The position numbers and the translations under genes were made by a program. A stretch of 64,000 nucleotides of DNA, from positions 9,726 through 73,725 of the IMG/VR virus record IMGVR_UViG_3300019360_000147; one strand, written 5' to 3'. Positions 820-64,000 of this stretch are shown here, one piece after another. Under the pieces are notes generated by a model that ran no database searches, had not been told where the DNA came from, and was given only the letters and a program-made list of their open reading frames with translations. The first letter of the stretch is position 1, and each line of letters opens with the position of its first letter. This DNA is from a virus.

Positions 820-994
820 GGCACAATCGAGTCCGAAACTCAGAGGGGATTGCGAGCCAACCGGACCGTCTGCCCAGCCCCGCACGATCGGGCACAATCG
901 AATCCGAAACTCAGAGGGGATTGCGAGTTGACGTAGCGTGAGAGGTTCCCAACCAGGGTTGTGGCACAATCGAATCCGAAACTCAGAGGGGATT
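820..994 (+). CRISPR. CRISPR mini-array, 3 repeats and 2 spacers, no cas genes in window
   Basis: 37-nt repeat GGCACAATCGA(G/A)TCCGAAACTCAGAGGGGATTGCGAG at 820-856 and 891-927, 3'-degenerate copy 963-994; unique spacers of 34 nt (857-890) and 35 nt (928-962). Confidence 0.92.
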
Positions 995-1027
995 TCTGAT
1001 CAGAAAGGAGAGAGGAGACGAACCGCG

Positions 1028-13337: not shown

Positions 13338-14507
13338 TTGATGGAAAAGTTGAAAGCCTACAAGACCGAGCTTGACCCCAACAACGTCCAGCGAACCTTG
13401 CTGGCAAAACATGCTGGCGCTGCGCGGTTCGCCTGGAACTGGGCGCTCGGTCGCCGTATCGAGGAATACAAACCCACAGGCAAGTCAAGTAATGTCATCG
13501 AGCAGCATCGGCAGTTGAACGCGCTGAAATCGACCGAGTTCCCCTGGATGTACGAGGTCAGCAAGTGTGCCCCGCAAGAAGCACTGCGAGACTTGGACAA
13601 GGCGTTCAGGAACTTCTTTGCGAAGCGAGCCAAGTATCCAAGGTTCAAGAGCAAGAAGCGTGGCCTGGGCGGGTTTCGCCTGACAGGCAGCATCACCATC
13701 GAAGCAGATAGGATCAAGTTGCCTCGCCTTGGCTGGTTGCGCCTGAAGGAATCGGGATACCTGCCGACAGACGCCAAAATCAACAGCGTCACTGTCAAAG
13801 AACGGGCGGGGCGCTGGTTTGTTAGCGTCCAGGTTGAGGAGCGGTTTGCCGTCACCGAAAACCAAGGTCCGGCAATCGGCCTTGATCTGGGCCTGAAGTC
13901 GTTCGTGGTTGGTTCTGATGGATCGTCTCTTGAATCGCCGAAGCCTCTCCTGCGATCGCTCAGGCGATTGCAGAGGTTAGCCAGGCAACACTCTCGAAAA
14001 CAGAAAGGATCAATGAATCGTCGCAAGTCGGCGAAGCGACTTGCCACACTGCACTACCGGATCAGCTGCCAACGCGCTGACTTCATCCATAAGGCCACAA
14101 GTGAACTGGCAAAAACCAAGTCAGTTATCGTGGTTGAGGATTTGAATGTCGGCGGGATGCTCAAGAATCGCTGCCTTGCTAGGCCCATCGGCGATGCTGG
14201 ATGGTCTGAGTTCGTCAGGCAGCTTGAGTACAAGTCGGCGTGGAATGGCGGTAGCGTGGTCAAAGCTGGCAGGTTCTACCCGTCCACGAAAACATGTTCG
14301 GCTTGTGGCATGATCAAGGACGAAATGCCATTGTCCGTGAGGACATATTGTTGCGGCGGTTGCGGGCTAGTCATCGACCGGGACGTGAACGCCGCAAGGA
14401 ACCTTGTGAGACTGAGTACCGTCAGTTCGACGGGATTTCAAGCCTGTGGAGATTCGCCGTTGGGCGGGTCCGCGAAGCAGGAACCGAGCGTCATGAACAA
14501 TGAGTAA
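13338..14507 (+). CDS. tnpB: TnpB RNA-guided endonuclease, IS607-type, no tnpA nearby
   Basis: KAYKTEL..N HTH; RuvC D (GLDLG), E (VEDL), D (DRDVNAA); CSAC/CGGC zinc finger. Confidence 0.93.
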   Translation: MMEKLKAYKTELDPNNVQRTLLAKHAGAARFAWNWALGRRIEEYKPTGKSSNVIEQHRQLNALKSTEFPWMYEVSKCAPQEALRDLDKAFRNFFAKRAKYPRFKSKKRGLGGFRLTGSITIEADRIKLPRLGWLRLKESGYLPTDAKINSVTVKERAGRWFVSVQVEERFAVTENQGPAIGLDLGLKSFVVGSDGSSLESPKPLLRSLRRLQRLARQHSRKQKGSMNRRKSAKRLATLHYRISCQRADFIHKATSELAKTKSVIVVEDLNVGGMLKNRCLARPIGDAGWSEFVRQLEYKSAWNGGSVVKAGRFYPSTKTCSACGMIKDEMPLSVRTYCCGGCGLVIDRDVNAARNLVRLSTVSSTGFQACGDSPLGGSAKQEPSVMNNE

Positions 14508-14541
14508 GTTTCGGAGAACGGCGAGTCCATGATCTACGTCG
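14410..14541 (+). ncRNA. probable omega-RNA 3' part / IS607 right end (to about 14521) plus flanking guide
   Basis: GAAGCAGGAA...GTAAGTTTCGGAGAACGG resembles IS607-group right ends; 5' boundary unknown. Confidence 0.55.
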
Positions 14542-15020
14542 GCGTCGAGAACAGCCCGGTCAAGGTCCGTATTGCGACTCGGGCACCAGCCAGGACCCTC
14601 TCCGTGGATCCCGCCGATCTCGCCTGGGACTGTCAGCGGCATATCGAGTTCCTGCTGGATGCGGAGAGGCACCTGAAGGACGGGTGGAAGGAAGCGTGGA
14701 TGATCCGGACTGCCTACGCGGGCTGGATGCTGCAAGCGGGGAGGACGCACGGGGCGGTGCTGGCCCGGTGTCGGCGATTCTTGGAGCGGGTGGCGGAGAT
14801 CCGGTTGCATGGTTTGGATGGACCCTGGGCGGTGGTGACGGTGGACGGAATACGGCTGGACGGGTCGCATCGGGCGGCGATTGCGGTGGTGCTTGGAGAG
14901 GACGCGGTGCCTGTGGCCGAGGTGCCGTACCTGGATGACGACGCGCGGTGGCGTCGGGAAGCGGTGGCGTATCGGGCCAAGAGGATTCGGGACGGGAGTG
15001 CGGCGGGAGCGAACCCGTGA
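14529..15020 (+). CDS. ParB/Srx-domain-like protein
   Basis: IRLHG...RLDGSHRAAIAVVLG...VPV. Confidence 0.55.
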   Translation: MIYVGVENSPVKVRIATRAPARTLSVDPADLAWDCQRHIEFLLDAERHLKDGWKEAWMIRTAYAGWMLQAGRTHGAVLARCRRFLERVAEIRLHGLDGPWAVVTVDGIRLDGSHRAAIAVVLGEDAVPVAEVPYLDDDARWRREAVAYRAKRIRDGSAAGANP

Positions 15021-15262
15021 CATCGGGCGTTGAGCACCTCCCGATGACGCTGAAGGAATTGGCCACGAAATTGGGGTGGTCGCAGCGGAGGGTGCAGTAT
15101 TGGCGGGGATTGGGCCTGCCGTTCCATCGGATCGGCGAGCGGAGCATTATCTACTTTCTGGATGAGGTGACGACATGGTTACGGACGATGCCGGGAGCCG
15201 TCCGATGCGATCCCCCCGGCCGACGGGGAAGCACCTCCCGGAGAAGCGGAAAGGGTTCATGA
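15017..15262 (+). CDS. winged-HTH (excisionase/Nu1-like) DNA-binding protein
   Basis: MTLKELATKLGWSQRRVQYWRGLGLP...EVTTWL. Confidence 0.7.
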   Translation: MTSGVEHLPMTLKELATKLGWSQRRVQYWRGLGLPFHRIGERSIIYFLDEVTTWLRTMPGAVRCDPPGRRGSTSRRSGKGS

Positions 15263-15516
15263 TCTACCTGCCGCCCAGCCTCCATGCCAAACTGAAACTG
15301 GAGGCAATCAAGCGGGCAGTCTCCATGTCGGAGGTGGCCTCGACGGCCGTGGCACAGCTCCTCGCCGACGATACGGCGGCAGGGGTGACGGTCATCGCCT
15401 CGACGCCGGAACCGTTCGTTGGGAGATTTGGCGGGGAGCACCACACGCCAAAAGCGGCGGACCCGGTGCCGGAATCCCAGCCGGCAGCTGGGCCCGTGAC
15501 CTACGAAGTCGAGTAG
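15205..15516 (+). CDS. ribbon-helix-helix DNA-binding protein
   Basis: FMIYLPPSLHAKLKLEAIKRAVSMSEV. Confidence 0.7.
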   Translation: MRSPRPTGKHLPEKRKGFMIYLPPSLHAKLKLEAIKRAVSMSEVASTAVAQLLADDTAAGVTVIASTPEPFVGRFGGEHHTPKAADPVPESQPAAGPVTYEVE

Positions 15517-16040
15517 GTTAGTACCCTCGGTGAATCTCGATGAGGATGCCGATGACGAGGATGGACAGGACAGTAGCGTAGATTTTTGGTCATTTTTGAG
15601 GGGCGAGTTACGGTCAAAAAGGGAAAAAGGCCCTCCCGGGAGGGCAGGAGGGCGGCTGGAGAGGGCCGGGGATCAGGCTGAGCCGGCTCGGGCGTCGGGG
15701 GCGAGGAGAAGAAGATCCGACAGAAGGTTGCGAAGCCGCTCGGTCACTGCGGGAGAAAAACATTCTGCTTTCGTGGTGGTGGAGTCCCGGAAGAGAAAGG
15801 CGTACCCGCCTTGGGGGAGAGAGGCTGCGCATCGGAGGGAAGGGATGGAGTCCCAAGAATTCCAGCCGGGGCGGCCGAGGGGCCTACCCCCCAGGGGGGT
15901 GGTCTTTCAGATTCCGACCAGTCGGCCGCGGCTCGGCCGGGCGATCGCCGCCCACATCATCCTGGGCCTGACTGGCGACCAGGACGGCGACCAGACTTAA
16001 CGACCCCTCGTAACCTACTATCAACACACGGTCTCCATTA

Positions 16041-16142
16041 CCGTGAATTCGACTGCCTGTCGAATACCACAGATTGTGCCTCGCGCTGTACATTTTTCAA
16101 ATCAGAAGGCCAGACTCACAATCCATCTGAGTTTCTGATTCG
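16041..16142 (-). CRISPR. degenerate single-spacer CRISPR unit (crRNA-like RNA / solitary repeat unit)
   Basis: Minus strand CGAATCAGAAACTCAGATGGATTGTGAG (25/29 to the 3' part of the array repeat), 34-nt spacer 16114-16081, GGCACAATC (first 9 nt of the repeat), then hairpin ATTCGAC-AGGCA-GTCGAAT. Confidence 0.75.
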
Positions 16143-16815
16143 CCGGAGCTGCCGGCGGATTGAACCCGCACCAGTCGCACGACAGCACGATTCGACCCAC
16201 CCCGCTCAACGCCGGTTCCGACGCTATCACCTGAGGCGTGCCGACCCCGTTCAACGCAGCCGCGCATGGCCGCACACTGGCACACACAACTACACCCGCT
16301 TCAACCTCTTTCAACGTGGACACCCTGGGGCTTACTTCCACCGGATACTCTTACTCTCTCAGACGTACTTCGAGTCACTACAATCAAATCGGGTACTGTG
16401 TGCTGTATCGAGTACTTGGGACTTCAATCCGTCTCCGAGTACTCTATCCGATAGGTCGTACACTATACGTCCTACTACAGAGTACTTCGGACTCGGACGC
16501 TAACGCGCGCGCGAGGCTTGCCATTGGCAATGTCTGCGATCCGCGAGGGGGCGACGTATTGGTATACTTTACCGTACAAGATTGCACAAATAACTGTGCA
16601 AAAGTATTGTCATGTATCCAAAAATATTGTGCACTGTGTTTTCGCTGGCTTGGCGGATCTCCTACAGACAAAGTGCATGATTTACAGGGCAAGAGACATG
16701 GAGCAAAATACTACACGATAGTAATATCAGCCCTTTACGCCCTCAGCACCAATATTGCGCCGACAACGGTGCACTAATGAACGCCGTAGAAACAGATGAC
16801 TAAAGAGGGGAAACC

Positions 16816-17142
16816 ATGAAAACCTATTGGAGCAGCTCGGTAGCAGTAAATGGGCAGGTAAAGTGCCCAACCAGGGATGTGGATCTACCAAGGGCGCTTG
16901 GTAAGTCCATCAAAAGTGCCATTTACTATCTGGCCATCTATCCCAATGCAAGCATTACCATTGAAGAGACGAGAGAGCAGTGCTCGCTGTGCTGGAATGC
17001 TGGCACGGTGAAGGCCGGCAAGAACGGCCTCCGCGGAGGCCGTTGCCCAGAATGCAAGGGCAAGGGCGCAACTGGGAGGGTTGGGTCCATCCCGGTCTGC
17101 CTATCAGACGATTCAAAGTTACAGATCATCCAGACGGCATAA
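16816..17142 (+). CDS. hypothetical early protein with DnaJ-like Cys motifs
   Basis: RBS GAGGGG; CSLC..AG and CPECKGKG. Confidence 0.65.
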   Translation: MKTYWSSSVAVNGQVKCPTRDVDLPRALGKSIKSAIYYLAIYPNASITIEETREQCSLCWNAGTVKAGKNGLRGGRCPECKGKGATGRVGSIPVCLSDDSKLQIIQTA

Positions 17143-17966: not shown

Positions 17967-18680
17967 ATGGCCAAATACGACGTCGAGCATAGTTGCGGAC
18001 ACACCAGCGTGCAGCAGCTCTATGGCCCGGGCAAGGACCGCGAGAGCCGGATCGAGTGGCTGAGCGGGCGGCCCTGCGTGGATTGCTGGAAGGCCGCCAA
18101 GCGGGCCGAGGACGCGATCAAGCCCATCCGCGTTACCGCCGCTACCAACGGCCTGGACAAGGATGAGCAGGGCAACATCCTGGCCGAGATCTATCTCACG
18201 GGCGGGACGGAGCCGCACAAGGACCGCATCAAGGCTTTGGGCTACTCGTGGGGCGAGGTGCGGGGAGGCGTGCTCAATTTCCTGTCCACAGCCTCCGCGC
18301 AGTGGGCGTGGATCAAGCGCCTGCCACTCCTCAGCTTGGGCGAGCGGGCGCCGGCGCTCCTCGCCGAGATCCGGGCCATCGACCCGCGAGCGGAGGGCCG
18401 GGTGGAGATCAATCTCTTGGACATCGAAATGGCCCGCAAGAGTTTGGCGGATCGCGAGGCACGGGTGGCGGCCAACCCCAAGCCCGAGCGGCCGCCTTGG
18501 TACGCCACGCTGATGGCTGGCCCGGACGCGCGGTGGAATGGCAAGATCTACGGGAAGGAGCAGTACGGCTACCGGATCTATATCAGCAACGTCGAGCATC
18601 GGATCACCAAGGATCAGGCAGCCGAGCTCACAGCCTACAACGAGGCCCGGCTGGCCCACAAGGCGGCCAAGACCGCCTGA
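17967..18680 (+). CDS. hypothetical protein with N-terminal Zn-binding motif
   Basis: RBS AAGGAGG; HSCGH...CVDC. Confidence 0.7.
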   Translation: MAKYDVEHSCGHTSVQQLYGPGKDRESRIEWLSGRPCVDCWKAAKRAEDAIKPIRVTAATNGLDKDEQGNILAEIYLTGGTEPHKDRIKALGYSWGEVRGGVLNFLSTASAQWAWIKRLPLLSLGERAPALLAEIRAIDPRAEGRVEINLLDIEMARKSLADREARVAANPKPERPPWYATLMAGPDARWNGKIYGKEQYGYRIYISNVEHRITKDQAAELTAYNEARLAHKAAKTA

Positions 18681-19088: not shown

Positions 19089-19408
19089 CGCCCCGCCTTG
19101 TCCGCACAGACTTCGCCGTGAGCGGGCGCTGTGCTCGCTACTGGCTCCGCAGCGCCGCCGGCTCCGAGGCCGCCATAGCCGTGGCGGAGGATGGCACCGT
19201 GGCCGGGCTGGATTTAGCGGCCGCCATACGAGACACAGGCTATGGCCCTTGGACCGTGATTCGCCGCGACGGTCAGGCCGTCCGGTATCTCGGTGTTATT
19301 GACCGCAGCGTCATCAGCCAGTCGGGGGCACGGCTCTGCGACCTGGACCGACCGCACGGGATGCGGTTTCAACTGCTGGGCCAGGTCGTGCCAACCAGGG
19401 AGGCGTGA
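19085..19408 (+). CDS. hypothetical protein
   Basis: Coupled ORF in the operon. Confidence 0.55.
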   Translation: MTPRLVRTDFAVSGRCARYWLRSAAGSEAAIAVAEDGTVAGLDLAAAIRDTGYGPWTVIRRDGQAVRYLGVIDRSVISQSGARLCDLDRPHGMRFQLLGQVVPTREA

Positions 19409-19409
19409 C

Positions 19410-20447
19410 GTGAGGGGCGTCTTTCAGAAGGCCGGGAAGGGCGGGACCTGGTGGATTCGCTGGACCTGCCCCAAGGGACATCGGCACGAGGAAAAGGTCG
19501 GGCCGAAGGCTGCCGCAGTTCGCCTGGTCGAACGGCGCCGAGTGGCCGCGAAGCTCGACGCGTTCTGTCTGACCGAGCACCGGACTCGTGACGTTCCCCC
19601 CCTCTTCGGCGCGGCGACCAGGGACTACCTCGCCTGGGCAGCCCGGGACCGCCCCCGCTCCGTCCGATTCCGCCAGTCTGTCCTGGCCGCTGTCCTGCCA
19701 GTATTGGGCCCGCGCTCCGTCCCGGACATCACCGCACCCATGATCGAGCACTATCTGGCCGCCCGGCAGCACGCAGGGGCCACAGGCGCCACGACCAACC
19801 GGGATCGGGCGGTCCTCTCCCACCTCTTCGGCCAGCTCGTAGCCAAGGGCATCCTCCGAACGAACCCCGTCGCCCGCGTCCCGCGCCGACGAGAAGCACC
19901 CGAGGAACCCCGGCCCCTGACTCATGACGCAGAGGCCAGGCTGCTCATGGCCCTGGACCCCCTCGAGACGTCCATCGCCCAACTGGCCCTCAACACCGGA
20001 CTCAGGCTGGGAGAGATCACGGCCCAGGCCTGGCGGGACGTGGACTGGGAGGCCAGGGCACTGACCGTCACGGCCCCCAAAAGCGGCCAGCGGGAGGTGA
20101 TTCACCTCAATCGCGTGTCCTGGGACCTCCTCGCCCGTCTCCCAAAGGACGGTTCGACGCTGTTTCCAACACTGCGGGCCGACTTCTCCCGGGTGTTTGC
20201 CCGAAAGGCCCGGTCAGTCAACCTTGACGTGACGTTCCACTGCCTGCGGGATACGTTCATCTCCAGACTGGCCCCGCATGTCTCGGGGCCAGTGCTGATG
20301 CAACTGGCGAGGCACCGGGATTTCCGGACGACGAGACGGTATTTGAAGGTGGATGGTCAGCACTTACGGGAGGCCATCGAAAAACTTGTGGAGGCAGACT
20401 ATGATGGATCAAACGCTGGCCGACTTGTGCCGACCCGACTGGACTGA
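19410..20447 (+). CDS. int: tyrosine recombinase / phage integrase
   Basis: TGLRLGE (R), PKSG (K), FHCLR (HxxR), LARH...TRRY (H, Y). Confidence 0.9.
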   Translation: MRGVFQKAGKGGTWWIRWTCPKGHRHEEKVGPKAAAVRLVERRRVAAKLDAFCLTEHRTRDVPPLFGAATRDYLAWAARDRPRSVRFRQSVLAAVLPVLGPRSVPDITAPMIEHYLAARQHAGATGATTNRDRAVLSHLFGQLVAKGILRTNPVARVPRRREAPEEPRPLTHDAEARLLMALDPLETSIAQLALNTGLRLGEITAQAWRDVDWEARALTVTAPKSGQREVIHLNRVSWDLLARLPKDGSTLFPTLRADFSRVFARKARSVNLDVTFHCLRDTFISRLAPHVSGPVLMQLARHRDFRTTRRYLKVDGQHLREAIEKLVEADYDGSNAGRLVPTRLD

Positions 20448-26118: not shown

Positions 26119-26220
26119 AGGTTCCATGCCCACGCGCACGACACTCGCTACTCCAGCGATCAGGCAACTCGTCGTTGAAGGCGGCATCCCGGCATTGCCG
26201 ACGAATCTGAGGATTGTGCC

Positions 26221-63854: not shown

Positions 63855-63880
63855 TGAGCATCGCGCTTCTGGAAATCGGG

Positions 63881-64000
63881 TCGCGGTCGTGGTCGGGGTC
63901 GCGGTCGGGGTCGGGGTCGCGGTAGTGGTCGGGGGCGCGGTCGTGGTCGGGGTCGGGGGCGGGGTCGGGGTTGGGGGCGAGGCAGAGGGCGCCGGGGCGG
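63881..64000 (+). repeat. degenerate hexamer tandem repeat (TCGNGG)n, encoding Ser-(Gly/Arg/Trp)
   Basis: TCGCGG TCGTGG TCGGGG..., decaying toward the window end. Confidence 0.75.

Follow-up and report, generated by a model that had tools for sequence, protein, structure and literature searches.

Naturally occurring, nuclease-dead forms of Cas12f have been described in array-linked versions, with 'discontinuous' arrays and with single guide RNAs that resemble CRISPR repeats (Hoffmann, Wiegand et al., Nature 2026, PMC13472631). In these systems a stand-alone, repeat-like scaffold carries the guide at its 3' end, and the guides serve gene regulation and not cutting. Degenerate mini-CRISPRs are known to regulate cas genes (bioRxiv 10.1101/2023.03.10.532045). 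Such CreR/CreA-type loci (see also PMC10120712) consist of a pseudo-repeat, a fixed non-immune spacer and a second pseudo-repeat, adjoin cas genes and partly match a cas or toxin promoter. Racrs (PMC10651486) are lone repeat-like elements of viral genomes, located far from arrays, which copy the repeats of the host and usually come without a spacer. Hairpins that block extraneous crRNAs (PMC13187072 and work cited there) trap a repeat together with a would-be guide and are found where a working array begins or ends, at its first or last repeat. Finally, the tracrRNAs of type V-F (Cas12f) systems have a long, contiguous anti-repeat beside the effector or the array.

We analysed a window of 64,000 nt, which comprises bases 9726-73725 of a 73,725-bp IMG/VR virus record (coordinates are those of the window unless prefixed by L009), and in it a solitary repeat-like unit on the minus strand. 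Like the dead Cas12f systems, this phage has an effector with a Cas12f fold and a C-terminal truncation, arrays nearby, and a stand-alone repeat-like scaffold with a potential guide at its 3' end. Unlike those systems, it is phage-borne, has a conserved gene for a putative partner of ~115 aa and no sigma factor, and the unit is inverted, lies 25 kb from the effector gene and has half of its 34-nt 'guide' paired with its own scaffold. The order pseudo-repeat, spacer, pseudo-repeat and the fixed non-immune spacer are shared with the CreR/CreA type, and here, too, only the parts that a mature RNA would need remain repeat-like. However, the unit does not adjoin the effector gene, no promoter match of the CreR/CreA kind was seen in the 73.7-kb record, which lacks the promoter of the effector gene, and the RNA of the unit is self-complementary, which CreR/CreA-type RNAs are not. 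The unit resembles a Racr in its lone position in a viral genome, far from arrays, but its model is the repeat of the virus itself, and a spacer-length gap and the start of a next repeat are retained. It has the trapping hairpin of the crRNA-blocking elements, but is solitary and at no array end, and its hairpin is strong whereas the true array-end structures of this phage are weak. As in type V-F, there is a Cas12f-type effector and a long complementarity to the repeat on the plus strand, but this is not beside the effector or an array, was not found in relatives, and mirrors repeat-spacer-repeat instead of forming a contiguous anti-repeat. Hence the unit fails at least one defining feature of each of the closest systems, and in the way it would work it is most like the dead Cas12f guides and the CreR/CreA RNAs.

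Architecture and origin of the inverted unit

The unit lies on the strand opposite to the arrays and 15 kb from the nearest one. It has the following features.

16142-16115, minus strand: pseudo-repeat of 28 nt, a copy of repeat positions 9/10-37 (25/29 against the repeat's last 29 nt)
16114-16081, minus strand: 34-nt 'spacer' (gap) between the pseudo-repeat and the repeat-start stub
16080-16072, minus strand: stub of the next repeat, GGCACAATC, 9/9 identical to the first 9 nt of the repeat
16065-16047 and 16045-16027, minus strand: pair of hairpins directly 3' of the 9-nt stub (-15.2 kcal/mol, z -2.6)
16142-16156, minus strand: small GC hairpin with a 5-bp stem directly upstream of the pseudo-repeat, seen in predicted folds
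16098-16142, minus strand: 16-bp hairpin (10 + 6 bp with an internal loop), in which the pseudo-repeat pairs with the start of the 'spacer'; loop GGAUUGUGA

The initial annotation had placed here a 25/29 repeat match, an exact 34-nt gap, a 9/9 stub and a hairpin, and we found all four pieces at those coordinates. It was also right in describing a hidden, inverted, degenerate repeat-spacer-repeat unit, with two degenerate repeats around one spacer, that array finders would miss. The alignment of the pseudo-repeat to the last 29 nt of the repeat has three substitutions and one deletion. The lengths of the pseudo-repeat, the gap and the stub (28 + 34 + 9) add up to 71 nt, exactly one array period, and on both sides the similarity breaks off sharply at repeat position 9/10, the flanks matching at only 4/9 and 4/28 positions. 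When the repeat was aligned to both strands of the 73.7-kb genome, no further copies were found near the unit.

The claimed match to the repeat is significant. A Smith-Waterman comparison of the 37-nt repeat with both strands of the whole 73.7-kb genome gave a score of 20 at the unit and 12 or less elsewhere outside the arrays. In 200 simulated first-order Markov genomes the maxima per genome had a mean of 13.8 (sd 1.2), the largest was 18 and none reached 20. For the 9-mer of the stub, the composition-adjusted chance is 3.6e-6 at the fixed site and 1.8e-5 over five spacings, and outside the arrays the 73.7-kb genome has only one other copy of GGCACAATC, at 26212 on the minus strand. As the repeat match is far above chance and the 9-mer stands at the exact spacer distance, the descent of the unit from the phage's own CRISPR arrays is secure.

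The second GGCACAATC copy (26202-26220, minus strand) is directly followed by CTCAGA, which corresponds to the repeat minus its positions 10-19. It overlaps a plus-strand GAGGA ribosome-binding site with its ATG and is therefore probably a chance match.

We observed that the 'spacer' is only in part what its position suggests. Its 5' 17-18 nt (16114-16097) duplicate the middle of the repeat, or the 5' half of the pseudo-repeat, in inverted orientation. With the true repeat in reverse complement this stretch agrees at 13/18 positions, its pairing with the pseudo-repeat is better, and nowhere in the genome does it match anything better than the true repeats and the pseudo-repeat, each read as reverse complement. 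The 3' 16 nt had no match anywhere searched (the 73.7-kb genome and, with the core of the 34-mer, IMG/VR). What had been annotated as an AT-rich spacer is half anti-repeat and not a free guide. No boxA or leader meaning could be attached to the TTTGAAAAAT that had been called boxA/leader-like.

As RNA, the hairpin has a predicted stability of -17.0 kcal/mol on the minus strand (z -3.0; 2/200 shuffles) and of -12.0 kcal/mol on the plus strand (z -2.2). The difference of 5 kcal/mol is due to three G.U pairs that exist on the minus strand alone; that all three favour the same strand has a chance of about 1 in 4. Among the changes in the pseudo-repeat, the A that replaces C15 faces a U of the fold-back arm, and the U that replaces C34 leaves a G.U pair in the predicted stem of the normal repeat. 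Together with the three G.U pairs, these changes fit a minus-strand RNA. On neither strand did a 539-nt region around the site fold with unusual stability. What puzzles most about the unit is its strong fold-back, which may lock the guide or may make a decoy that displays the handle.

Arrays and Cas12f-like effector of the phage

The same 37-nt repeat occurs in three arrays of the 73.7-kb record, all on the plus strand. One of them is inside the window.

820-999, plus strand: array of three repeats and two spacers, the nearest true array to the unit

The other two, with eight repeats and two repeats, lie within the 9.7 kb preceding the window, and the eight-repeat array, which is the largest, adjoins the effector gene. 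Each array closes with a last repeat altered at its 3' end, the alteration being the same in all three, followed by TCTGATCAGAAAGGAGAG and then by the start codon of a glycan or methyl-transfer gene; this arrangement indicates that the arrays are embedded in operons. A short segment complementary to the repeat follows the altered last repeats of the three arrays. Since the array-end hairpins are weak in folds of the true arrays, the idea of a 'trapped last repeat' was not established for them. An identical 56-bp block, with the hairpin CCCCGGACT/AGTCCGGGG, stands ahead of arrays 2 and 3 (764-819; L009:6307-6362), which points to a recent duplication or shuffling of array modules.

In the leader of array 1, GATTGTGTC (L009:780-788) is complementary, with one G.U, to the 9 nt that open the repeat, and repeat 1 is preceded at 7 nt by a degenerate partial copy that ends in GATTGCGAG. 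A possible kinship of this leader with the DNA upstream of the unit, based on a shared GTCGGAAC island at a similar distance, was rejected (Smith-Waterman score 12, reached by 127/300 shuffles). Spacer 3 of array 1 (L009:1033-1067) is identical at 34/35 positions to a late gene of the phage itself (41161-41195, plus strand), with the single mismatch at spacer position 3 and AAAGGG as the 5' flank of the protospacer. This self-match could reflect self-regulation or the targeting of sibling phages. Against an isolate phage collection, the largest array gave chance-level matches only.

The record opens inside the effector gene (L009:3-671). It holds the C-terminal 222 aa of a protein of ~420 aa, the 5' half of the gene and its promoter being cut off by the record start. 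This 222-codon part has a weak match to the Cas12f TNB domain, to the first half of the TNB profile only. We found eight full-length relatives in metagenomes (407-453 aa, 47-53% identical). A structure model built from them (pLDDT 79) matched AsCas12f with an E-value of 4e-16 and a TM score of 0.6, and its further matches were structures of other Cas12f and TnpB proteins and that of a solved, nuclease-deactivated Cas12f; a sequence profile of the family recovered the same Cas12f-type proteins as the model. Identity to the solved Cas12f and dead Cas12f chains is ~15%. In the alignment, the family stops soon after a conserved L-x-Y-K...G-I...F-D-P segment, and the zinc-finger/RuvC-III region is absent. 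The effector is thus Cas12f-like and C-terminally truncated; with the zinc-finger/RuvC-III region missing, it is putatively nuclease-dead and probably a DNA binder rather than a cutter.

The effector is encoded in all of the 11 related loci fetched, nine of which have a recognisable array or repeat pair on its strand. The repeats of the relatives differ in sequence and have a common type of 3' end, (A/G)TTGAGRG, ACTGAAGG or CGTGAAGG. The pseudo-repeat keeps this end, conserved across the effector family (GATTGNGAG type), and its own end, GATTGTGAG, as well as its CAGATG-GATTG segment, are inside the natural variation of the relatives' repeats. The array of one relative (L013) likewise opens with a repeat that is missing its 5' ~10 nt, so that the 28 nt retained in the unit may be what matters in an RNA of the repeat-then-guide (type V) order. 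Directly after the effector, a gene for a conserved protein of ~90-115 aa was found in seven of the eight metagenome loci (L012-L019, with the exception of L016). The ~115-aa companion of the phage (L009:1405-1758) has no Pfam match; here the array stands between the effector and the companion, and in the relatives the companion comes before the array. This protein may be a partner of the effector. An inverted unit like the one described here was not found in the loci of the relatives. Inverted partial repeat matches in L018 (at 13909) and L020 (at 12337) are inside coding genes and were discarded, and a repeat-like stretch at 4060-4080 of L018 is a ribosome-binding site ahead of an ORF.

These observations take the repeat away from a host type I system, to which the initial annotation had linked it through Cascade, Cas6 and an 8-nt handle. 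The repeat is that of the phage's three arrays and goes with the phage's own Cas12f-like effector, and its conserved 3' end tracks the effector family, not type I. The further proposal, that the phage both exploits and subverts one and the same host system, is not supported either, as the record encodes its own effector beside the largest array.

The non-coding neighbourhood and searches for a target

The unit is located in a region with the following features.

15520-16815: non-coding region of ~1.3 kb with lower GC, which hosts the unit; its ORFs look non-coding
16073-16100, minus strand: sigma-70-like promoter match TTGAAA-16 nt-CACAAT inside the unit, which would fire away from the pseudo-repeat
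15621-15653, minus strand: intrinsic-terminator-like hairpin (9-bp stem, 7 GC) with a T-run, ~390 nt downstream of the unit

The region separates a plus-strand operon ending at 15516 from a plus-strand gene starting at 16816. The gene at 15175-15516 encodes a ribbon-helix-helix/HicB-like small protein and that at 16816-17142 a Cys-rich, zinc-ribbon-like protein with a weak Anti-TRAP match; both are plausible regulators. An integrase gene is located at 19293-20447. Oriented like the operon and 1.6 kb upstream of the region, a complete TnpB gene (13338-14507; HTH, OrfB_IS605 and TNB domains) seems to represent an independent insertion element; no sign of a link to the unit was found. The region has no tRNA or tmRNA, and Rfam searches gave no family in it, either at the gathering threshold or at E-values up to 5. 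A T-loop-like GGTTCAATCC beside the unit was ruled out as a tRNA arm, because the arm is not formed.

Two sigma-70-like sites were found in 2 kb against 1.0 expected, which is not significant by itself. The only promoter-like match is the one inside the unit, and no convincing promoter was found upstream of the pseudo-repeat. Neither the promoter nor the terminator counts exceeded those of shuffled sequences, and we take both matches as weak hints. Repeated motifs occupy 16196-16316, 16360-16500 and 16580-16640. They comprise CCSACCCCGYTCAACGC (13-17 nt; two or three copies at 45-60-nt spacing beside the unit), four or five copies containing GAGTACT, with one inverted pair, and TTGCACA-N7-TGTGCAA palindromes in an AT-rich stretch ahead of the gene at 16816. 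These motifs may be operators or an origin, and the region looks regulatory.

The proteins of two neighbouring genes (14529-15020 and 17967-18680) have no close relatives in IMG/VR, and no similar DNA was found in the isolate phage collection. The end of the record (63860-64000) is a GGGTCG-type repeat with an 18-nt period, which probably broke the assembly; the CheckV label 'complete' therefore does not mean joined ends.

A target for the 34-mer, proposed to lie in host cas promoters or leaders, did not emerge: the 34-mer had no other match in the 73.7-kb genome, where 10-mer matches occurred at the number expected by chance and which does not include the effector promoter, and its 20-nt core was absent from IMG/VR in an exact-pattern scan. 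The repeat core was likewise absent from IMG/VR in such a scan. The repeat did not lead to a host, as had been envisaged. An exact-pattern scan for its 19-nt core in 185,579 species genomes, one per prokaryotic species and blind to diverged repeats, revealed no array and two single-copy matches, about the chance expectation.

A proposed solitary guide RNA and the competing explanations

We consider it most probable, at roughly 40%, that the unit specifies a crRNA-like RNA, solitary and self-locked, that would serve the phage's own Cas12f-like effector; the crRNA-like nature proposed earlier survives as a reasonable reading. The minus-strand RNA would comprise a handle of 28 nt, a fixed 34-nt 'guide' and the 9-nt stub of the next repeat, and the first 17 nt of the guide would fold onto the handle, leaving the RNA locked by itself. 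A fixed, non-immune RNA of this kind may act on the phage's own effector in either of two ways, as a regulatory guide, similar to the single guide RNAs of dead Cas12f or to CreR-type RNAs, or through a handle that titrates the effector. We infer the minus-strand transcription, the effector binding and the regulatory effect that this reading entails.

Several observations argue for such a guide. The boundaries, one period apart, keep exactly the content of a repeat followed by a guide, and at a divergence of ~14% neutral decay would be unable to erase the flanks so fully. The handle has retained the repeat end of the effector family, and the structural changes of the pseudo-repeat are in favour of the minus strand. 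The terminator-like site downstream of the unit, on the same strand, counts in the same direction, and the stand-alone guides of dead Cas12f that resemble CRISPR repeats (PMC13472631) offer a precedent. Counted against it are the lack of a target, of a homologous unit in relatives and of a convincing promoter in the searches described above, and the fact that boundaries at the same repeat position may also stem from an event at the DNA level. In addition, the native-like stem of the handle is weak and would lose against the 16-bp fold-back (-17 kcal/mol), so that loading of the RNA may be poor.

It is nearly as likely that the unit is a non-functional scar, that is, a unit-length piece of an array which was re-inserted in inverted orientation during the rearrangements that scattered the arrays and has been decaying since. 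Such a piece could stem from two neighbouring repeats cut at the same position, from a recombination circle or from a copied processed crRNA, and the palindrome would then have arisen incidentally, for instance through snap-back synthesis. That the unit is unique to this genome and without counterpart in relatives fits a scar, as do its divergence of 14% against otherwise near-identical repeats, the missing target and clear promoter, a handle sequestered in a hairpin, and the 56-bp block ahead of arrays 2 and 3 as an instance of module shuffling. Useless DNA is rarely kept in phages, which speaks against a scar, yet the 1.3-kb non-coding region of the unit is rich in repeats. The one-period boundaries, the conserved end of the handle and the intactness of the 9-mer are as compatible with selection as with chance, and the three G.U pairs are all in favour of one strand, for which the chance is ~1 in 4.

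An RNA of the opposite strand is unlikely. The plus strand of 16115-16142 is complementary to the 3' 28 nt of the repeat and that of 16072-16080 to the first 9 nt of the next one, so an anti-repeat RNA could pair with the pre-crRNA on either side of a spacer and help in a tracrRNA-like manner, guide processing or act as a sponge. Genome-wide, no other site outside the arrays pairs as well with the repeat RNA as this one (-41 kcal/mol, z -6.0, the next being at z -5.2), the effector has the fold of Cas12f, whose solved nucleases use tracrRNAs, and the plus strand is the one generally transcribed, with nearly all genes and the arrays on it. However, within up to 10 kb on each side of eight related effector loci we found no long anti-repeat and no recurring short one (to the last 16 nt of the repeat), and the published dead Cas12f systems have no tracrRNA (PMC13472631). 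A distance of 25 kb separates the site from the effector gene and one of 15 kb from the nearest array; none of its mismatches to the true repeat is a G.U pair (they are C.A, C.U and a bulge), the plus-strand hairpin is the weaker one, and an anti-repeat would have no obvious use for the repeat-spacer-repeat order.

It seems improbable, too, that the self-locked RNA is a switch or decoy for Cas12f-type silencing, with the conserved end of the repeat shown in the loop of the hairpin. Such an RNA might titrate the dead-Cas12f effector of the phage itself or set the time of its action, or it might blunt the equivalent effectors of sibling phages. The arrays of sibling phages appear to aim at each other's late genes, and in this phage it is the late gene of its own that a spacer matches at 34/35 positions. 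If true, the unit would resemble an RNA anti-CRISPR that is employed against other phages or to control the phage itself, and not against a host.

Quite improbable is an element acting at the DNA level, in which the imperfect palindrome and the TTGAAA/CACAAT match form an operator, a promoter or a protein-binding site and the repeat ancestry is incidental. The neighbourhood does offer operator-like GAGTACT copies, TTGCACA/TGTGCAA palindromes and a 17-nt motif at 45-nt spacing, and a promoter-like match inside the unit is followed by a terminator-like site on the same strand. But the counts of such sites are at the level of shuffles, the palindrome is unlike the neighbouring motifs, and the one-period architecture would be left unexplained.

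A mimic of host CRISPR RNA (a Racr or solitary repeat unit, or a hijacked CreR- or crRNA-like RNA) that decoys host Cas proteins or guides host Cascade to a cas promoter of the host is highly improbable. Solitary repeat units and crRNA-like regulators do exist in phages (PMC10651486; bioRxiv 10.1101/2024.10.29.618823), but the repeat belongs to the phage's own arrays and effector, its 3' end follows that effector family, and the exact 19-nt core led to no array in the species genomes scanned, within the reach of a search that misses diverged repeats.

Thus, a solitary guide RNA for the phage's own effector is the reading we prefer. If the unit is a scar, it documents that array modules move and invert inside a phage genome, and even then it corrects the assumption that the mini-arrays depend on a host type I system. 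If the RNA is expressed and bound by the effector, the virus would have hard-wired one guide, with a built-in hairpin lock, beside its ordinary arrays. It would then represent a natural design for a conditional, self-inhibited guide RNA, and would support the emerging view of the dead relatives of Cas12f and TnpB as RNA-guided gene regulators.
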